Source: Escherichia phage vB_EcoM_KAW3E185 | Reading direction: 5' to 3' (one strand) | Sequence record: MK373782.1 | DNA: 64,000 bases | Part shown: one piece after another, positions 42,053-51,797 of the stretch | Layout of the letters: each line of letters starts with the position of its first letter | Position numbering within the stretch: the stretch's first letter is position 1 | The notes under the pieces: model-generated | The model's database searches: none | What the model saw: the letters and a program-made list of their open reading frames with translations, nothing else | What the model was told of the DNA's origin: nothing | Translations under genes and position numbers: made by a program

Positions 42053-43621
42053 ATGACTACTATCAAAACTAAAGCTCAGCTCGTAGACAAATGGAAAGAA
42101 CTGCTGGAAGGTGAAGGCCTGCCGGAAATCGCTAATAGCAAGCAGGCTATTATCGCTAAAATCTTCGAAAACCAGGAAAAAGATTTCGAAGTATCCCCTG
42201 AATATAAAGACGAGAAAATCGCTCAGGCATTTGGTTCTTTCTTGACCGAAGCTGAAATTGGTGGTGACCACGGTTATAATGCTCAGAACATCGCAGCAGG
42301 TCAAACCTCTGGTGCAGTAACCCAAATTGGGCCGGCAGTTATGGGTATGGTTCGTCGTGCTATTCCTAATCTGATCGCTTTTGATATTTGTGGTGTTCAG
42401 CCTATGAACAGCCCGACCGGTCAGGTATTTGCTCTCCGTGCAGTATATGGTAAAGACCCTATCGCTGCTGGCGCTAAAGAAGCTTTCCATCCGATGTATG
42501 CTCCAGATGCGATGTTCTCTGGTCAGGGTGCTGCTAAGAAATTCCCAGCTCTGGCTGCTGACACTACTACTGTTGTAGGTGATATCTATACTCACTTCTT
42601 CCAAGAAACTGGTACCGTATATCTGCAAGCTTCTGCTATCGTAACACTTGATTCTAGTGCAACTGATGCAGCTAAATTAGATGCAGAAGTTAAGAAACAA
42701 ATGGAAGCTGGTGCACTGGTAGAAATCGCTGAAGGTATGGCTACTTCTATCGCTGAACTCCAGGAAGGTTTCAACGGTTCTACCGATAACCCATGGAATG
42801 AAATGGGCTTCCGTATCGATAAACAAGTTATCGAAGCTAAATCTCGCCAGCTGAAAGCTGCTTACTCTATCGAATTAGCACAAGACCTCCGTGCAGTACA
42901 CGGTATGGATGCTGATGCTGAACTGAGCGGTATTCTGGCTACAGAAATTATGCTAGAAATCAACCGTGAAGTTGTTGATTGGATTAACTACTCTGCACAG
43001 GTTGGTAAATCTGGTATGACCCTGACTCCGGGTTCTAAAGCTGGTGTATTTGACTTCCAGGACCCGATTGATATCCGTGGTGCTCGTTGGGCCGGTGAAA
43101 GCTTTAAATCTCTGTTGTTCCAGATTGATAAAGAAGCAGTTGAAATTGCTCGTCAAACCGGTCGTGGTGAAGGTAACTTCATTATCGCTTCCCGTAACGT
43201 AGTTAACGTACTGGCTTCAGTTGATACTGGTATTTCTTACGCTGCACAGGGTCTGGCTTCTGGTTTTAATACCGACACTACTAAGTCTGTATTTGCCGGT
43301 GTACTTGGTGGTAAATACCGCGTATACATCGACCAGTATGCTAAACAGGATTACTTCACCGTTGGTTACAAAGGCGCTAACGAAATGGATGCAGGTATTT
43401 ACTATGCTCCTTACGTTGCACTTACCCCACTGCGTGGTTCCGATCCTAAGAACTTCCAGCCGGTAATGGGCTTTAAAACTCGTTACGGTATCGGTGTTAA
43501 CCCGTTTGCTGAAAGTTCCCTGCAGGCTCCAGGCGCTCGCATCCAGTCCGGTATGCCGTCTATCCTGAACAGCCTTGGTAAGAACGCTTACTTTAGACGC
43601 GTCTACGTTAAAGGAATTTAA
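42053..43621 (+). CDS. 23: gp23 major capsid protein
   Basis: 522 aa; T4 order. Confidence 0.97.
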   Translation: MTTIKTKAQLVDKWKELLEGEGLPEIANSKQAIIAKIFENQEKDFEVSPEYKDEKIAQAFGSFLTEAEIGGDHGYNAQNIAAGQTSGAVTQIGPAVMGMVRRAIPNLIAFDICGVQPMNSPTGQVFALRAVYGKDPIAAGAKEAFHPMYAPDAMFSGQGAAKKFPALAADTTTVVGDIYTHFFQETGTVYLQASAIVTLDSSATDAAKLDAEVKKQMEAGALVEIAEGMATSIAELQEGFNGSTDNPWNEMGFRIDKQVIEAKSRQLKAAYSIELAQDLRAVHGMDADAELSGILATEIMLEINREVVDWINYSAQVGKSGMTLTPGSKAGVFDFQDPIDIRGARWAGESFKSLLFQIDKEAVEIARQTGRGEGNFIIASRNVVNVLASVDTGISYAAQGLASGFNTDTTKSVFAGVLGGKYRVYIDQYAKQDYFTVGYKGANEMDAGIYYAPYVALTPLRGSDPKNFQPVMGFKTRYGIGVNPFAESSLQAPGARIQSGMPSILNSLGKNAYFRRVYVKGI

Positions 43622-43651
43622 TGCTTTAACGTTAAAAATACATAACCTTAT

Positions 43652-43680
43652 GGGAGACTCCGGTCTCCCATTCTTGTTTC
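43652..43680. terminator. Terminator after gene 23 (possibly bidirectional)
   Basis: GGGAGAC-TCCG-GTCTCCC followed by a T-rich tail. Confidence 0.65.
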
Positions 43681-44339
43681 TATAGCTTAAAACAATCATC
43701 GCGTTCATTAATCCAATTTCTTATAGTTTTTGCGGATACGTTAAAGAATTCGGCAGCGTAATCGTAGTGGTTAAATTCATGACCTTTAATAGAAATATCC
43801 ACAAATACAAATTTCTTACCTTTATTAGAATTCTTTCTAATTTTTGCTTTATGCTCTTCTGATAGTTTTCTACCTTTAAGATGAGAATCTCTATTTTTAT
43901 AAAACTTTTTATTTGCTATAGATTTGTTTTCTCGATGTTCTTTAGATTCTTTAGAACCTAATTTCTTTTTAGATATTTTGGCCCGAACTTCTTCAGTCAT
44001 ACCAGCTTTTGTCTTTTCGGATAACATCTCACGATACCCAGGTTCCTGTAAAGCTACTATAACAGGATTACCCTTGCCGCCTAAGGCTGCATTATAAGTA
44101 TCTGTTCTCATGACAAAAGCCTCGTCAACTAGTTCGGCTTCCTTAGCATACATCTCTTCAGATGTTTCGAAATTGAAAAGGATTTCCTTTTTAAAATTCT
44201 CTAAGCCGTATTTCTTTATGGATTTTACTATGTTAACCCCGGAACCCATATAAGAATCGTTAACATCTGTAGTGGCATGGGCTCCAACATAAATCTTGTT
44301 ATTAATGAGATTGGTTATTTTGTAAATTAAATAATTCAT
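43680..44339 (-). CDS. GIY-YIG homing endonuclease (seg-like), opposite strand to flanking late genes
   Basis: 219 aa; N-terminal YKITNLINNKIYVGA...YMGSGVN GIY-YIG module; T4 segD occupies the same gene 23 / gene 24 gap. Confidence 0.85.
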   Translation of the reverse strand: MNYLIYKITNLINNKIYVGAHATTDVNDSYMGSGVNIVKSIKKYGLENFKKEILFNFETSEEMYAKEAELVDEAFVMRTDTYNAALGGKGNPVIVALQEPGYREMLSEKTKAGMTEEVRAKISKKKLGSKESKEHRENKSIANKKFYKNRDSHLKGRKLSEEHKAKIRKNSNKGKKFVFVDISIKGHEFNHYDYAAEFFNVSAKTIRNWINERDDCFKL

Positions 44340-44342
44340 ATT

Positions 44343-44609
44343 TTACGCTGCTTTGACACGACGGTTGATGATATCACGGAAGTCAATACGATTTTCTTGG
44401 ATTTTCAGCCAGTTACCAGATTTGTCTTTGGTATGGGTAGAATATTCACCGTTCCACCAGAAGTCAGTTTCATAAGCCAGGGCTTCGTATTTCTTAACCA
44501 ATGCATTAACTGCATTACCGTTAGGATTGGTGCCAAATTTTTCTACCAGAGCTTTGATGTCTTTGTCAAGGTTAGAAAGTGTGGTACGGATAAAGTTTAA
44601 TTTGTTCAT
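44343..44609 (-). CDS. Hypothetical 88-aa protein
   Basis: Internal ATG MNKLNF has GAGGAGA Shine-Dalgarno; PeSL cassette upstream. Confidence 0.5.
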   Translation of the reverse strand: MNKLNFIRTTLSNLDKDIKALVEKFGTNPNGNAVNALVKKYEALAYETDFWWNGEYSTHTKDKSGNWLKIQENRIDFRDIINRRVKAA

Positions 44610-44625
44610 TTTTAATCTCCTCATG

Positions 44626-44690
44626 TTTTGATAGGTCTATATTAACACGACGCTTTTTGCGTGTAAACCACTTTTATAAATAAAATTATA
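44626..44690 (-). promoter_or_regulatory. Early promoter with stem-loop (PeSL-like)
   Basis: GTTTACA, 17 bp, TAATATA; spacer inverted repeat ACACG...CGTGT. Confidence 0.5.
44675..44682 (+). promoter_or_regulatory. Late promoter TATAAATA (gene 24)
   Basis: TATAAATA ~30 nt upstream of gene 24. Confidence 0.6.
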
Positions 44691-44712: not shown

Positions 44713-45996
44713 ATGAGTAAAATCCAAAAATTATTGCGTGAATCTACAACGTCTACTAGCAACTCAATTGGTCGCCCAAATCTCGTTGCTTTGACTCGCG
44801 CTACGACTAAATTAATATATTCTGACATTGTAGCAACACAAAGAACTAATCAACCTGTTGCTGCTTTTTATGGTATCAAATATCTTAACCCAGATAACGA
44901 ATTCACATTTAAAACTGGTGCTACTTATGCTGGCGAAGTTGGATATGTAGACCGAGAAAAAATTACTGAACTCACAGAAGAATCAAAAGTCACACTAAAT
45001 AAAGGCGATTTTTTCAAATATAATAATATCGTCTATAAAGTGTTAGAAGATACACCATTTGCAGATATTCAAGAAAGTGATCTAGAATTAGCTCTTCAGA
45101 TTGCAGTCGTTCATTTAAAGGTACGGTTATTTTCAGATGCAGCGGTAACAAGCAAATTTGAAAGCTCTGATAGCGAAATTTCTGATGCAAGATTCCAGAT
45201 TAATAAATGGCAAACTTCAGTCAAATCTCGTAAACTTAAAACTGGCCTCACGGTTGAATTAGCGCAAGATTTGGAAGCGAATGGATTTGATGCCCCTAAC
45301 TTCTTAGAAGATTTGCTTGCTACTGAAATGGCTGATGAAATTAATAAAGATATTCTTCAGTCTTTAATTACTGTATCGAAACGTTATAAAGTTACTGGAA
45401 TTACTGACACCGGATTTATTGACTTGAGCTATGCATCCGCTCCAGAAGCAGGTCGTTCATTATATCGAATGGTGTGTGAAATGGTATCACACATTCAAAA
45501 AGAGACAACTTATACTGCAACGTTTTGTGTAGCCTCAGCTCGTGCAGCTGCTATTCTTGCTGCTTCTGGTTGGTTAAAACATAAGCCAGAAGATGACAAG
45601 TATCTTTCACAAAATGCTTATGGATTCTTGGCAAATGGATTACCTCTTTACTGCGATACCAACAGTCCGTTAGATTATGTTATTGTGGGTGTTGTAGAAA
45701 ATATCGGCGAAAAAGAAATTGTAGGGTCCATCTTTTATGCTCCATACACTGAAGGAGTAGATTTAGATGACCCGGAACATGTCGGTGCTTTTAAAGTTGT
45801 AGTTGATCCAGAAAGCTTGCAACCGTCTATCGGATTATTGGTTAGATATGCTTTATCAGCAAATCCTTACACAGTAGCAAAAGACGAAAAAGAAGCGAGA
45901 ATAATTGATGGCGGGGACATGGATAAAATGGCAGGACGTTCAGACTTGTCTGTTTTATTAGGTGTTAAGCTACCAAAAATTATCATTGATGAATAA
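44713..45996 (+). CDS. 24: gp24 capsid vertex protein
   Basis: 427 aa, same as T4 gp24. Confidence 0.95.
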   Translation: MSKIQKLLRESTTSTSNSIGRPNLVALTRATTKLIYSDIVATQRTNQPVAAFYGIKYLNPDNEFTFKTGATYAGEVGYVDREKITELTEESKVTLNKGDFFKYNNIVYKVLEDTPFADIQESDLELALQIAVVHLKVRLFSDAAVTSKFESSDSEISDARFQINKWQTSVKSRKLKTGLTVELAQDLEANGFDAPNFLEDLLATEMADEINKDILQSLITVSKRYKVTGITDTGFIDLSYASAPEAGRSLYRMVCEMVSHIQKETTYTATFCVASARAAAILAASGWLKHKPEDDKYLSQNAYGFLANGLPLYCDTNSPLDYVIVGVVENIGEKEIVGSIFYAPYTEGVDLDDPEHVGAFKVVVDPESLQPSIGLLVRYALSANPYTVAKDEKEARIIDGGDMDKMAGRSDLSVLLGVKLPKIIIDE

Positions 45997-46025: not shown

Positions 46026-47024
46026 TTATGATACTAATTCAATCCATGCAGGACGCAGAACATCTTGCACCATTCGGACTAATTCTTTCTTAACAAGATT
46101 CGGATTATCAGATGATGTTAATACAATACCTTCGCGAGAAGTTTCTTCCAGAATATCTTGAACAGTCAATCCCATCACTTTACCAAAATCTTTTGGCGTT
46201 ACAGCACCAATCTTAGAAATAACATTATTAACACGATTTAATGTAACATAACAAGCTAGAACATCAAGCAAGTTTTTGTCAATTTCGGTTAATGGAACCT
46301 GAGTTTTAATAGGCTTATCAGACTTTTTCTTTTCACTGAATTTAGAGTTCTTGCACTTAATAGCTACACGAGTACCGTTTGGCAGCCATTTAGGGAAACA
46401 AGGCTTCAGAACATAACCTTCTGCCGTATTATCACCAATAACATTAGCATCAAATACACAATTATTTGCTTCGACAAGGTCTTCTGACGCAGTAGCATTA
46501 TAAGCGGCTAAGACGGAATCAAGGTCATTTGGAATCATGATAAGAGAATCAAATGTTCCACGACCAAGCATTGGTGCCATTTTAAAACCGAATTCATTAC
46601 AGAAATCTTGCATTTCGTAATCGGTCAAATACGTATTATCACCACTTTCTGTATTGATAAGGATATCGAACACATAAAAATCTTTTTCACCGTAGTCAAC
46701 ACCTTTCTGGATTCCACCACCAGCGAATTCACCGAATACTTGATATGATACGGCTCGAGCTGTGTACATGAATTCCTGAGCGGCTTTAATAGCTTTATCA
46801 TACTTCTTGAGTACGATTTCATAACCATAAAAATCTTCTGCTGGAAGAATAGGGCCTGTGCGCTTGGCGCATGTGACGTTGTCACGTTCAATTATTAACG
46901 AGAAGTTAGTCCCATGGATTTTCTCACGTGCTACCCAAACACCAGTAGTCAAACCATTAGTGTAGAGTTTTTCAATAAACTTAGAGTTGTAGTGGTTTTC
47001 AAGACTGCTGTATTTCTTAAACAT
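46026..47024 (-). CDS. rnlB: RNA ligase 2
   Basis: 332 aa; nucleotidyltransferase motif I KIHGTN; position after gene 24. Confidence 0.9.
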
Positions 47025-48827: not shown

Positions 48828-49496
48828 TTATTTTAATGTTACGAAAGAAGAATTACGAGTTTCACGAATTAGAACTGATCCATCGCGATTAATATAATAA
48901 ATTAAGCTAAATAATGTTTGGTGAGCAGAAGCATGCACAAAACTAGTTGGGCGAGATTTCCAATCTGGGGTTTCGGCTATCCATTGATAAATCCACCAAG
49001 GAACAGTAACATATCCTGGGGCTTTGCCTAATTTAATTAGTGTAGGACTAAAATTTTCAGGCAGAACAAATTTTACTTCTTTATTTACCTCTGTCTCAGG
49101 CTCTTTTTCAGATTCAACAACCTGAGTAATTGCTTCTTCGAATTTATCATGGTCGAATTCTTTTTCTTGTTCGACAACTTCTAATACTTCAACTTGTTCT
49201 GTTGGAGAATCAAACAACAGAATAGCTTCTTCTTTAACTTCTTCGTTGGTGAAATTAACACCGTCCACATCATCTGCGGCAGTAATTAAATCGGTGATAG
49301 ATAATCCATCGGTTTCAGGTAATGGTTCATCAGCCAGTGCGTTAAGAGCTTCTTCGATATCAATAACAATATTATCGAATGATTTTGTTTTCTTAACACT
49401 AATGCCAAATTGTTTCGCATATTCGAACAGTTTAGCTTTGGCTTCCTTTTTATCAGAAAGAGCACGTAACTCTTCAATATAGTCTTTATCGATCAT
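48828..49496 (-). CDS. inh: Inh, inhibitor of prohead protease
   Basis: 222 aa; acidic; position after hoc. Confidence 0.75.
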   Translation of the reverse strand: MIDKDYIEELRALSDKKEAKAKLFEYAKQFGISVKKTKSFDNIVIDIEEALNALADEPLPETDGLSITDLITAADDVDGVNFTNEEVKEEAILLFDSPTEQVEVLEVVEQEKEFDHDKFEEAITQVVESEKEPETEVNKEVKFVLPENFSPTLIKLGKAPGYVTVPWWIYQWIAETPDWKSRPTSFVHASAHQTLFSLIYYINRDGSVLIRETRNSSFVTLK

Positions 49497-49509
49497 GGTA
49501 TTTCCTCAT

Positions 49510-49517
49510 TATAAATA
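49510..49517 (+). promoter_or_regulatory. Late promoter TATAAATA upstream of seg-like gene
   Basis: CATTATAAATATAAC. Confidence 0.55.
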
Positions 49518-49545
49518 TAACTATATTTATTACATGGAAAAGAGT

Positions 49546-50277
49546 ATGTATCACTTTGTTTATGAAACCGTAAATTTAATCAATGGTAAAAAGTACATTG
49601 GCAAACATTCTACAGAAAATTTAAATGATTCGTATCTAGGGTCAGGTGTTGCCTTAAATCGCGCTATCAAAAAATACGGAGAAGAATCATTTAAACGTTC
49701 AATAATTAAACAATTTGAAACTTCCGCTGAAGCTTTAGAATACGAAGCTCAGTTAGTAACAGATGATTTGGTCAAATCTAACGAGTATTATAATATGCGC
49801 CAAGGCGGTGAAGGTGGAAGGTATAAGTACACCGAAGCTGATAAGACTAAAATGTCTAATAGTGCTAAAGAACGAATAAAGAGGCTTGGTCATAATCTTT
49901 TAGGAAAACACAGATCGGAAGAAACAAAAAGAAAACTATCTGAAACAAATAAACGTCGATACTCTGAAGACCCAACATGCCACGGGCGGTATGGTACAGG
50001 AAAGCCAAAGATTGATAAAATTAAAGGTCCTAAAAATCCTACAACTCTAAATAAAATTTGTGTTAACAACGGTAAAGAAAACAGATTTATATCAGCCGAG
50101 GACCCGATGCCTGAAGGATTTGTAAAAGGAATGGTCCAACTTAATAGAAAATCTAGAAAGGGCTGTGAAGTAAAACCTACGACCACCGGCAGAATATGGG
50201 TGAATAACGGGGCTATAAATAAATTAGTAAATCCGTTATCCATCCCAGATGGATATGTTAAAGGCCGTTTAAGGTAA
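49546..50277 (+). CDS. GIY-YIG homing endonuclease (segE-like by position)
   Basis: YHFVYETVNLINGKKYIGKH...YLGSGV GIY-YIG module; duplicated WVNNG...DGYVKG C-terminal DNA-binding repeats; start chosen at internal ATG. Confidence 0.85.
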   Translation: MYHFVYETVNLINGKKYIGKHSTENLNDSYLGSGVALNRAIKKYGEESFKRSIIKQFETSAEALEYEAQLVTDDLVKSNEYYNMRQGGEGGRYKYTEADKTKMSNSAKERIKRLGHNLLGKHRSEETKRKLSETNKRRYSEDPTCHGRYGTGKPKIDKIKGPKNPTTLNKICVNNGKENRFISAEDPMPEGFVKGMVQLNRKSRKGCEVKPTTTGRIWVNNGAINKLVNPLSIPDGYVKGRLR

Positions 50278-50282
50278 TTATT

Positions 50283-51797
50283 ATGACAGATATTAAAGTA
50301 CATTTTCACGATTTTAGCCATGTAAGAATTGAATGCGACGAAAGCGTGTTCTATGAATTACGCGACTTTTTTAGCTTTGAAGCCGATGGGTACAAATTCA
50401 ACCCGCGTTACAAATATGGGAACTGGGATGGTAGAATTAGACTTTTAGATTACAATCGTTTGTTACCATATGGACTTGTAGGTCAAATAAAAAAGTTCTG
50501 TAACAATATGAGTTATTCTGTATGGATTGACCCTAAAATCTTTGAGACTGAAGACCTTACCAGGGAAGATTTTGACGCATGGCTTTCTAAACAAGAAATT
50601 TATTCAGGCAACTCCAAAATCGAACCACATTGGTATCAAAAAGATGCAGTATATGAAGGACTAGTTAATCGTCGTCGAATTTTAAACCTTCCGACATCAG
50701 CAGGTAAATCACTAATCCAAGCACTTTTAGCTCGATATTATCTAGAGAACTATGAAGGTAAAATTCTCATTATCGTCCCTACAACAGCATTGACAACTCA
50801 GATGGCTAATGATTTTGTTGATTATCGCTTGTTTAGTCATTCGATGATTAAGAAAATTGGCGGTGGTGCTGATAAAGCAGACAAATCTAAAAACGACGCT
50901 CCAATTATTGTTGGCACATGGCAAACGGTAGTTAAGCAGCCTAAAGAATGGTTCTCTCAGTTCGGTATGATGATGAACGATGAATGCCACTTAGCAACAG
51001 GCAAAAGTATTTCTTCAATCATCTCAGGATTAAATAATTGCATGTTTAAATTCGGTTTATCCGGCTCATTAAGAGACGGAAAAGCCAATGTAATGCAGTA
51101 TGTAGGCATGTTCGGCGAAATCTTCCGTCCTGTTAGCACGTCTAAATTAATGGAAGACGGACAGGTAACTGAGCTTAAGATTAATAGTATTTTCCTTCGT
51201 TATCCAGACGAATTCGCCACCAAATTAAAAGGTAAAACATATCAAGAAGAAGTTAAAATTATTACCGGACTAAAACGTCGTACAAAGTGGATTGCTCAAC
51301 TTTCAGTAAAATTGGCTAAGAAAGACGAGAACGCCTTTGTAATGTTTAAACACGTTACACACGGTAAAGAAATATTTGAAGCTATTAAAGAGCTTGGATA
51401 CGAAAAAGTTTATTACGTATCAGGTGAAGTTGATACTGAAACACGTAACGCGCTTAAAGTCATGGCAGAAAATGGTAAAGGCATTATTATTGTTGCATCA
51501 TATGGAGTATTCTCTACTGGTATTTCAGTCAAGAATCTTCATCATGTTATTTTTGCCCATGGTGTTAAATCAAAAATTATCGTACTTCAAACCGTAGGTC
51601 GTGTGCTTCGTAAGCACGGTTCTAAAGCTGTTGCTACAGTTTGGGATCTCATAGATGACGCAGGTGTAAAACCTAAATCATTAAATACTAAAAAGAAGTA
51701 TACTCATCTTAATTACTTGTTAAAACACGGTATTGATCGTATCCAACGTTACGCTGATGAGAAATTTAACTATGTAATGAAAACAATTAATTTATAA
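50283..51797 (+). CDS. uvsW: UvsW helicase
   Basis: 504 aa; Walker A LPTSAGKS; DECH box. Confidence 0.95.
   Translation: MTDIKVHFHDFSHVRIECDESVFYELRDFFSFEADGYKFNPRYKYGNWDGRIRLLDYNRLLPYGLVGQIKKFCNNMSYSVWIDPKIFETEDLTREDFDAWLSKQEIYSGNSKIEPHWYQKDAVYEGLVNRRRILNLPTSAGKSLIQALLARYYLENYEGKILIIVPTTALTTQMANDFVDYRLFSHSMIKKIGGGADKADKSKNDAPIIVGTWQTVVKQPKEWFSQFGMMMNDECHLATGKSISSIISGLNNCMFKFGLSGSLRDGKANVMQYVGMFGEIFRPVSTSKLMEDGQVTELKINSIFLRYPDEFATKLKGKTYQEEVKIITGLKRRTKWIAQLSVKLAKKDENAFVMFKHVTHGKEIFEAIKELGYEKVYYVSGEVDTETRNALKVMAENGKGIIIVASYGVFSTGISVKNLHHVIFAHGVKSKIIVLQTVGRVLRKHGSKAVATVWDLIDDAGVKPKSLNTKKKYTHLNYLLKHGIDRIQRYADEKFNYVMKTINL

Follow-up and report, generated by a model that had tools for sequence, protein, structure and literature searches.

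Between genes 23 and 24 of the T4-like phage studied here, a gene for a homing endonuclease and a gene of 88 codons lie on the opposite strand. Do the two form one mobile module, or has the endonuclease settled beside a gene with a history of its own? The window, that is, the whole stretch of DNA analysed, comprises 64,000 nt of Escherichia phage vB_EcoM_KAW3E185 (MK373782.1) and is 99.4% identical to Shigella phage JK45. A first-pass annotation had leaned towards a single module, in which the 88-aa protein could serve the mobile element as an immunity or accessory factor. We consider a different reading likely: a SegD-family GIY-YIG gene has settled into the 3' end of an accessory gene that is older than the insertion and unrelated to it, in an intergenic hotspot that lies between genes 23 and 24 in many T4-like phages.

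Expression signals of the reverse-strand unit

The features of the junction are collected in Table 1. Both minus-strand ORFs are co-oriented and adjacent, being only 3 nt apart: the stop codon TAA of the 88-aa gene is followed by AAT and then by the ATG of segD. GenBank records already label the pair 'SegD homing endonuclease' and 'hypothetical protein'.

Table 1. Features at the junction of genes 23 and 24, with positions counted from the first nucleotide of the window.
Feature	Position	Strand	Basis
Gene 23 (major head protein per JK45 annotation), 522-aa ORF	42053-43621	+	
Gene 23 intrinsic terminator hairpin, ATGGGAGAC-TCCG-GTCTCCCAT	43650-43671		Terminator scan and folding
segD-like free-standing GIY-YIG homing endonuclease gene, 219 aa	43680-44339	-	PHROG 314, TIGR01453
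Maximal extent of segD-linked DNA	43685-44363	-	Alignment with empty sites of SQ17, EP01 and JS10
88-aa resident gene, PHROG 6003	44343-44609	-	PHROG match
Final 6 codons plus stop codon of the 88-aa gene, co-varying with the segD allele	44343-44363	-	
Codons 51-82 of the 88-aa gene, low synonymous divergence	44364-44459	-	dS comparison
Shine-Dalgarno sequence GAGGAG of the 88-aa gene	44617-44622	-	Direct reading of sequence
Early-type promoter TTTACA-17-TAATAT	44639-44667	-	Promoter scan, conservation in relatives
T4-type late promoter box of gene 24, TATAAATA	44675-44682	+	
Gene 24 (capsid vertex protein per JK45 annotation), 427-aa ORF	44713-45996	+	

The early promoter that the first-pass annotation had placed at the head of the unit is borne out. 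It is of the sigma-70 (T4 early) type, lies upstream of the 88-aa gene, carries a TG before its -10 hexamer and matches at 9 of 12 positions. Since the promoter scan found 2 such sites where 4.4 were expected, the scan alone is not above chance, and support for the promoter comes from its conservation among relatives. Its hexamers are retained with divergent spacers in nine of them, and TTTACA-N17-TAnnAT occurs in SQ17, EP01, JS10, VR7 and IME08 as well as upstream of T4 segD; the motif is absent from the T2 junction. The promoter scan found no promoter specific to segD, and the early promoter presumably drives both the 88-aa gene and segD.

Translation of the 88-aa gene has a clear start signal, the GAGGAG sequence 7 nt before the ATG at 44609, which is identical in SQ17, EP01, JS10, IME08 and UP19. 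An alternative reading of 93 aa, from the upstream ATG at 44624, has no Shine-Dalgarno sequence. The late promoter box of gene 24 faces away from the early promoter and precedes the ATG of its gene by 31 nt; the motif is matched 19 times in the window against 8.3 expected.

Hairpin terminators had been proposed on both sides of the unit, and only the one next to gene 23 stands. Its stem has 9 bp. Read on the plus strand, it folds with -17.9 kcal/mol (z -4.4) and leads into a U-rich tail; the minus-strand values are -16.5 and z -3.6, with a poor U tail. The hairpin is kept in relatives with and without segD, and it is probable that it also ends the reverse transcript of the 88-aa gene and segD. 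The hairpin supposed on the other side (about 44646-44665) lies inside the promoter spacer and, with z between -0.3 and -0.7, is no more stable than shuffled sequence.

The endonuclease and the resident protein

The reverse-oriented gene between genes 23 and 24 was correctly recognised at first pass as coding for a GIY-YIG endonuclease, and it belongs to the SegD family. Its 219-aa product matches PHROG 314 (E = 5e-54) and the 'group I intron endonuclease' model TIGR01453 (57.4 bits, cut-off 56.05). Taken as a single sequence, it stays below the gathering thresholds of Pfam PF01541 (GIY-YIG; 16.2 bits against 22.6) and PF19835, and a PDB search with it returned nothing relevant. Structural matches came with the family profile of 38 members, which finds the catalytic domain of I-TevI (1MK0, residues 3-85, E 0.005) and its DNA-binding domain (1I3J, residues 133-206, E 0.0014). 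Among the 38 relatives, 35 match SegE_GIY-YIG (PF19835), 15 match NUMOD3 and two match I-TevI_DNA-bd; the window protein itself gives weak matches to NUMOD3 (156-176) and to an HTH (195-213). Residues Y6, Y17, G19, E67 and N83 are invariant across all 38 relatives, the Seg family is also invariant at H21, T23, D28, Y30 and G32-S33-G34, and the window SegD keeps 22 of 22 invariant family residues. Aligned by profile with 1MK0, the family shows a gap opposite the I-TevI segment that contains R27. The predicted architecture is I-TevI-like, with an N-terminal GIY-YIG nuclease (approximately residues 1-105), a linker and a C-terminal NUMOD3/HTH DNA-binding domain.

In the divergent C-terminal, DNA-binding half of SegD dN/dS amounts to 0.14-0.17, and these ratios indicate purifying selection on the protein in both allelic forms of its DNA-binding domain, the window type and the IME08/04086 type. 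Base composition was considered as a sign of foreign origin and rejected as not diagnostic: segD, with 30-38% GC, is below gene 23 (45%) but close to gene 24.

The 88-aa protein is a full-length member of PHROG 6003 (E = 1.2e-48), a family of unknown function located mainly at the 23/24 junction of T4-like phages. No meaningful match to a Pfam, PADLOC or NCBIfam family was found. AlphaFold2 predicts a fold of helix, helix, beta-hairpin and helix, with a pLDDT of 75 in the first model and 93 with a deeper alignment, and comparison of this model with known folds gave no informative structural neighbour. An NGN motif is invariant in the family, and invariant residues persist down to 27% identity. 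A word-indexed homology search returned only seven close relatives; an exhaustive HMM search gave 13 matches, among them four informative small homologues (P0008, P0012, P0013 and P0019). The other HMM matches were mostly multiple stretches in very long proteins, besides one chimeric protein of 160 aa. Most likely the product is a small accessory protein made early, with a binding partner in the host or the phage and no role in segD mobility; as to its function, our confidence is low.

The mobile segment and the question of homing

How much of the unit moves can be read from relatives that lack the endonuclease. One of them, SQ17, matches the window at 98% identity on either side of the site but has no segD cassette. 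Of the differences between the two in the 88-aa gene, nine fall in its last 21 nt and one in the remaining 246 (p = 2e-10). Comparison of the junction across relatives, as suggested at first pass, delimits the insertion: segD-linked DNA consists of segD, the spacer of 3 nt and the end of the 88-aa gene, where the last codons and the stop have been replaced. The 88-aa protein ends in RRVKIA at empty sites, in RRVKAA in the window, JK45 and IME08, in RRVKAE in 04086, L011 and L012, and in RRVKVEA in UP19. These cassette boundaries are the same in two divergent genetic backgrounds, and only the last six or so codons of the 88-aa gene travel with segD, while its first 150 nt follow the host background. 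What moves is segD plus a few terminal codons of the 88-aa gene, not the gene pair. Around the cassette, no target-site duplications or terminal repeats were found beyond short repeats at chance level. At one stage the segD-less phages seemed to have a replaced C-terminus of 16 residues, as tblastn matched only residues 1-72 of the 88-aa protein; this truncation was an artefact of low-complexity masking, and direct alignment gives 99% identity over all 88 residues.

The exchanged stretch at the end of the 88-aa gene holds the translation initiation region of segD. Its Shine-Dalgarno sequence is GGAG in alleles of the 04086 type and GAGG in UP19; the window has only GCAGCG. Since this allele is without a recognisable Shine-Dalgarno sequence, expression of the window segD may be very low.

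Presence or absence of segD is polymorphic in both genetic backgrounds of the 88-aa gene, and the surrounding sequences are mosaic. From about codon 51 of the 88-aa gene to the stop of gene 23, some 850 bp that end sharply, the window matches UP19 at 96-100% identity; in the gp24 and gp23 flanks the two reach no more than 72-83%. Within segD, dS is 0.10 in the N-terminal half against 0.84-1.54 in the C-terminal half. In the 88-aa gene of SQ17 and EP01, dS is 0.06 in codons 51-82 and 0.67 in codons 1-50 (Fisher p = 0.004). These codons 51-82, next to the insertion point, keep 97-100% identity in every example from Mosigvirus, Dhakavirus and Tequatrovirus but not in VR7 (dS 1.5), and the low-divergence tract is identical in genomes with and without segD. 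This stretch is a candidate gene-conversion tract or target region; if the cut site lay within it, the enzyme's own genome would be unprotected by sequence. Mosaic tracts, together with presence and absence in two backgrounds, show that segD has moved horizontally by recombination, whereas active homing is inferred.

The events at the junction can be pictured as follows. The resident unit consists of the early promoter, the Shine-Dalgarno sequence and the 88-aa gene, pointing away from gene 24 and ending at the gene 23 hairpin. The segD cassette brings neither promoter nor terminator; it swaps the last codons and stop of the 88-aa gene for its own sequence, which in sister alleles carries the segD ribosome-binding site, and places the segD stop codon against the shared terminator. 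Lacking both signals, such a cassette would most likely yield SegD at a low level from a bicistronic early transcript, and translation of the window segD is probably coupled to that of the 88-aa gene because this allele has no good Shine-Dalgarno sequence. If it behaves like the other Seg enzymes of T4, SegD would cleave the DNA of segD-less relatives during mixed infections, close to the empty junction or at it; the probable places are the 3' portion of the 88-aa gene, which is conserved, and the terminator region. Classical homing would call for a cut confined to the empty allele, within or close to 'CGAGTTAAGATTGCATAG|TATAGAAAC' or else inside codons 51-82. Repair from the segD-bearing genome would then copy the cassette with flanking DNA.

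Whether either gene depends on the other can be judged from their distribution. Of the 119 phage records that carry the 88-aa gene, about 37 also have segD and about 82 do not, the latter spanning four genera (Mosigvirus, Dhakavirus, Gaprivervirus and Tequatrovirus). In SQ17, EP01, JS10 and VR7 it stands at this junction with no segD beside it, and more distant homologues (57%, 31% and 27% identity) are likewise lodged between genes 24 and 23 in the absence of segD. In two non-T4-like phages, homologues are found at unrelated loci among unrelated small genes, with no endonuclease nearby. By the standard that the first-pass annotation had itself set, such occurrences apart from the endonuclease refute the partnership. 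Conversely, T4-type segD is found, and T4-type SegD works, at a locus without the 88-aa gene, and T2 has neither gene. The window SegD falls in a clade separate from the T4 type and linked to the 88-aa gene; a literature search on IME08 with segD found nothing. One mobile module of two genes, with the 88-aa protein as its immunity or accessory factor, is very improbable in view of these data and of the few codons that travel with segD, even though the genes are close neighbours in the same orientation, are probably co-transcribed from one promoter and show co-variation of the last 88-aa codons with the segD allele. The partnership proposed at first pass is attractive but wrong here: judged by these genomes, the 88-aa gene is a neighbour of segD, not its partner, and the two genes are independent. 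Hardly any credence can be given to the view that the main task of the unit is to act on late genes 23 and 24, as an antisense device or a transcriptional insulator, its ORFs being incidental. The unit does run antisense to two strong late genes, its early promoter abuts the late promoter of gene 24, and the poor minus-strand U tail of the hairpin makes read-through antisense to gene 23 possible. However, both ORFs are conserved as proteins, the one in its invariant residues across distant homologues and the other with dN/dS far below 1; neither an Rfam match nor a group I intron signal was found at the locus; and T2 and most Tequatroviruses lack the whole reverse-strand unit, which is thus dispensable for expression of genes 23 and 24.

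If segD is the mobile gene, is it still homing? An intact SegD-type nuclease might have ceased to do so, its patchiness reflecting ordinary homologous recombination and hitch-hiking at a recombination-prone junction, while the nuclease is kept for other reasons or slowly decays. Sokolov et al. (2018) state in their title that homing is not initiated by the SegD of T4; the identity of the flanking tract in genomes with and without segD, the weak or absent Shine-Dalgarno sequence of the window segD and the two thirds of 88-aa gene carriers that are still segD-free fit such a reading too. We nevertheless hold it rather unlikely. Both alleles of the DNA-binding domain are under purifying selection, all invariant family residues are kept, and recurrence of the same cassette and boundaries in two divergent backgrounds, with sharp tract ends, looks like the product of nuclease-driven conversion. 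Moreover, identity to the T4 type drops to 44% in the DNA-binding half, so that results for T4 need not transfer.

A joint reading, which we regard as doubtful, would make PHROG 6003 an ancient early accessory protein with a new small fold, anchored antisense between the major capsid and vertex genes through deep divergence (down to 27% identity), and would make the conserved 3' part of its gene a hotspot of cleavage and gene conversion for this SegD lineage; the 88-aa protein could be a host-takeover or counter-defence factor. If that were true, the hotspot would homogenise the 3' tract across genera, even in endonuclease-free phages, and would amount to marker exclusion without obligatory transfer of segD.

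For the reading that we prefer, a SegD-family gene nested in an older accessory gene, the implication is that a minimal homing endonuclease gene can live without promoter and terminator of its own by building the region from which it is translated into the final codons of a resident accessory gene. PHROG 6003 is flagged as a conserved, locus-anchored early gene. Near-isogenic pairs with and without segD (JK45-like phages and SQ17; IME08 or UP19 and JS10 or EP01) form a natural test system suited to two questions, whether SegD-type enzymes home and how swaps of the DNA-binding domain change their targets.

Comparison with known homing endonucleases

In its layout, the pair of the 88-aa gene and segD is a common sort of variation on an arrangement familiar from T4, and for most readers its mobile-element biology is of the routine T4-like kind. 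T4 SegD, likewise a protein of two domains with this architecture, is encoded at the same locus and in the same reverse orientation relative to genes 23 and 24. In both phages the segD stop codon adjoins the gene 23 terminator hairpin, and upstream a TTTACA-N17-TAnnAT motif stands back to back with the late promoter of gene 24. T4 segD lies directly behind this promoter region, with no 88-aa gene, whereas the window segD is a second cistron after the resident gene and has its start region within the last codons of the latter. The two proteins are 58% identical overall and 75% in the catalytic half; because the DNA-binding half reaches only 44%, the target of the window SegD may differ from that of T4 SegD. 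The cleavage site of the T4 enzyme is reportedly the same in phages with and without segD.

With I-TevI the window SegD shares, in its N-terminal GIY-YIG domain, the residues Y6, Y17 and N83 (Y6, Y17 and N90 in I-TevI) and a C-terminal DNA-binding domain with a minor-groove helix and an HTH. Unlike I-TevI, which is encoded in a group I intron of the T4 td gene, SegD is free-standing, and no zinc-finger linker was identified in it.

SegF, SegG, SegB and MobE resemble the window segD in lying between conserved genes and in being polymorphic among relatives. Free-standing T4 homing endonucleases use neighbouring expression signals and start at, or overlapping, the end of the upstream gene (PMC2988022), and the window segD likewise relies on the signals of its neighbour and starts at the end of the upstream gene. 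Low-divergence tracts flank the insertion, resembling the exchange boundaries described in PMC10448857. SegF, SegG, SegB and MobE cut the neighbouring gene and co-convert the flanks; the window segD is known here from its sequence. In contrast to these genes, it is antisense to the surrounding late genes, an orientation noted as unique to segD (PMC2988022).

Nesting of segD behind a resident early gene

The region around the gene 23 / gene 24 junction of the window is 99.4-99.5% identical to T4-like phages (Shigella phage JK45 and Escherichia phages BEU50, NRG-P0074 and AV109), and its genes stand in the order of the T4 head module. The two adjacent minus-strand genes reported between gene 23 and gene 24 by the first-pass annotation are both present: a resident early accessory gene of 88 aa has a SegD-family, I-TevI-like endonuclease gene (segD) nested behind it as second cistron. 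In the window, JK45, SQ17, EP01 and T4, gene 24 is single and rnlB comes next; many relatives carry two tandem gene 24 paralogues (24a/24b, both PF07068; junction loci L008 of JS10, L009 of VR7, L012, L013, L015, L018 and L021).

Features of the junction and of neighbouring genes in the window
Feature	Position	Strand	Remarks
Prohead protease and scaffold genes			first in the listed head-module order, before gene 23
Gene 23	42053-43621	+
Terminator hairpin	43650-43671		-17.9 kcal/mol, z -4.4
segD	43680-44339	-	219 aa
segD, C-terminal DNA-binding half	43680-44024	-
segD, N-terminal catalytic half	44025-44339	-
88-aa gene	44343-44609	-
88-aa gene, codons 51-82	44364-44459	-
Sigma-70/T4-early-type promoter	44667..44639	-	TTTACA-17-TAATAT with TG; promoter scan and conservation
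Gene 24 late promoter box	44675-44682		TATAAATA; back to back with the early promoter
Gene 24	44713-45996	+
rnlB	46026-47024	-
inh-like gene	48828-49496	-
Second Seg-type gene	49495-50277	+	260 aa
uvsW-like helicase gene	50283-51797	+

The early promoter match did not exceed chance in the promoter scan by itself, but TTTACA-N17-TAnnAT recurs at the same position, with differing spacers, in nine relatives. Of the hairpin terminators supposed to insulate the genes on both sides, only the one next to gene 23 holds; the other lies within the promoter spacer and folds no more stably than shuffled sequence. The proposed layout as a whole thus keeps its ORFs and early promoter and loses its second hairpin. 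The Shine-Dalgarno sequence (SD) GAGGAG stands 7 nt 5´ of the 88-aa gene start. A 93-aa start at 44624, annotated in some records, overlaps this SD and has none of its own; the IME08 record (NC_014260) gives the small gene in the 93-aa version, from an upstream ATG without SD.

The 219-aa protein is indeed a GIY-YIG homing endonuclease, as had been assumed. It matches PHROG 314 'homing endonuclease' (5e-54) and PADLOC HEase models, and passes TIGR01453 'group I intron endonuclease' (score 57.4, curated cut-off 56.05). Its Pfam GIY-YIG matches are below threshold when it is searched as a single sequence; a profile of 38 relatives matches both the catalytic (1MK0, E 0.005) and the DNA-binding domain (1I3J, E 0.0014) of I-TevI, SegE_GIY-YIG being matched in 35 of the 38, and all 22 invariant family residues are kept, including Y6, Y17, E67 and N83. 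Public records of near-identical phages already carry the annotation (SegD) homing endonuclease plus hypothetical protein. In 04086 (OR842557), an intact 223-aa segD ORF is unannotated (junction locus L007, 1199-1871 in the gene's orientation). The window holds a second Seg-type GIY-YIG homing endonuclease gene, between the inh-like and uvsW-like genes; its 260-aa product has a PHROG 314 match of 2e-42 and shares 38% identity over 158 aa with the segD product of the window, and its position is that of T4 segE (PMC2988022).

Independence of the 88-aa gene from segD

The 88-aa protein matches PHROG 6003, a family without assigned function, at 1.2e-48, and its gene was found by tblastn in 119 phage records. 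Only about 37 of these carriers have window-type segD, a figure reached by two counts (37 records covering at least 80% of the 1.7-kb query, 37 with SegD at 80% identity or more). The order 23, 88-aa gene, 24 occurs without endonuclease in SQ17 (Mosigvirus), EP01 (Tequatrovirus), JS10 (Dhakavirus) and VR7 (Gaprivervirus); metagenomic homologues of 57%, 31% and 27% identity lie at 24, X, 23 too, again without segD. Conversely, T4 and two metagenomic T4-like phages (their SegD 60-62% identical) have 23, segD, 24 without the 88-aa gene, and both are missing from T2 and most Tequatroviruses, in which an 83-bp spacer comprises terminator and late promoter only. Since both genes, either alone, or neither may be present, there are four states of the junction, and each gene assorts independently of the other. 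This assortment, together with the occurrence of the 88-aa gene without segD in the four named phages and in remote homologues, contradicts its suggested role as partner of the mobile element. It is a resident gene outside that element, with homologues even at unrelated loci: in Acinetobacter phage ABPH49 (Vequintavirinae) and one metagenomic contig its homologues are surrounded by small unknown genes, and no nuclease was found near them.

In the AlphaFold2 model of the protein (pLDDT 93), a pair of long helices is followed by a beta-hairpin and a helix at the C-terminus; the NGN motif (N30-G31-N32), F6, L21, N35, A45 and Q71 are invariant in the family. We tentatively regard it as a small accessory protein of the early phase that binds a host or phage partner; its only mildly surprising trait is its deep anchoring at the capsid-gene junction. 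The gene is unannotated in the ATK47/ATK48 records (KT184309/KT184310/NC_055708). Residues about 122-155 of the metagenomic protein P0010 (160 aa) exactly match the central part of the 88-aa protein, while the rest is unrelated; this chimera is probably an assembly or gene-calling artefact.

Insertion boundaries and horizontal movement

Comparison of the junction across relatives defines the limits of the insertion. Sequence common to the window and to empty sites (88-aa gene without segD) reaches position 43684 (...CCCATTCTTGTTTCTATA) and restarts about six codons short of the end of the 88-aa gene. Between the window and SQ17, this gene differs at 9 of its last 21 nt versus only 1 of 246 elsewhere (p = 2e-10). 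The protein tail varies together with the cassette, that is, segD plus the replaced 3´ end: RRVKIA at empty sites, RRVKAA in the window, JK45 and IME08, RRVKAE in 04086 and two further segD-bearing relatives (L011, L012), RRVKVEA in UP19. Every segD-bearing allele reads ...TAA-AAT-ATG(segD), and the segD stop codon adjoins the shared terminator. From these boundaries, the cassette is a minimal gene without promoter or terminator, using the signals of the resident gene; a search around the insertion gave neither a target-site duplication nor terminal repeats, and no structured RNA. Sister alleles have a good segD SD within the replaced stretch (GGAG in the 04086 type, GAGG in UP19). In the window this stretch offers just GCAGCG, and segD there probably relies on translational coupling to the 88-aa ORF.

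The first 150 nt of the 88-aa gene distinguish two backgrounds, window/JK45/04086/L011/SQ17/JS10 (96.7-100% to the window) and EP01/IME08/UP19 (about 84-87% to the former), and both include phages with and without segD. Identity between window and UP19 is 96-100% over a tract that begins near codon 51 of the 88-aa gene, includes segD and the terminator, and ends at the stop codon of gene 23, while the flanking genes 24 and 23 are only 72-83% identical. Evidently, divergent phages have exchanged segD in the form of a discrete tract.

The gene is itself mosaic. Its catalytic half has dS of about 0.10 among all segD-bearing phages; its DNA-binding half has two allelic forms (69-83% amino-acid identity, dS 0.84-1.54), which co-vary with the spacer from terminator to gene 23 stop (loci L005, L007, L011, L012). 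Their dN/dS of 0.14-0.17 indicates that both are under purifying selection, and the existence of two such forms suggests exchange of DNA-binding domains within segD, possibly with different targets.

In codons 51-82 of the 88-aa gene, dS is tenfold below that of codons 1-50, across phages otherwise 10-30% divergent; even SQ17 and EP01, both devoid of segD, give 0.06 versus 0.67 (p = 0.004). The more distant VR7 lacks this trough (dS 1.5), a sign of recent gene conversion beside the insertion site rather than of intrinsic DNA-level constraint; a gene-conversion hotspot is the reading we favour.

Such movement is probably driven by homing. segD would be transcribed early from the resident promoter, on a bicistronic message extending to the gene 23 hairpin, and translated at low level; in mixed infection, SegD would cleave the empty junction, its vicinity or the conserved 3´ part of the 88-aa gene, and the cassette would be copied during repair. 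The main rival explanation, a non-homing enzyme spread by ordinary recombination only, would agree with the flanking tract being identical in genomes with and without segD and with the weak SD of the window gene. T4 SegD reportedly does not home, a result attributed to Sokolov et al. 2018. We consider this rival rather unlikely for the window enzyme.

Comparison with T4 SegD

The window gene is a member of the SegD clade of free-standing GIY-YIG homing endonucleases. Its product is 58% identical to T4 SegD overall and 75% in the catalytic half. The two genes occupy the identical locus in the same unusual orientation; no other endonuclease gene of T4 is noted as running antisense to the genes beside it (PMC2988022). 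In the mutant T4 record T4_7t1 (L004, OL964745.1), segD at 2001-2661 is given as two overlapping CDS (2001-2309 and 2248-2661) and is therefore frameshifted, either by real disruption or by sequencing error. According to a 2010 review (PMC2988022), no promoter specific to segD had been found in T4. Immediately 5´ of T4 segD (L004 1930-2000) there is a TTTACA-N17-TATTAT motif, whose position with respect to the gene 24 late promoter is that of the promoter of the 88-aa gene in the window; this shared placement suggests that one layout may have arisen from the other, either that of T4 from an 88aa-segD unit that lost its 88-aa gene, or the opposite way round. Unlike T4 segD, the window gene is nested behind a PHROG 6003 gene, with its start region grafted onto the last codons of that gene, and its DNA-binding domain is divergent (only 44% identical to that of T4 SegD) and bi-allelic.
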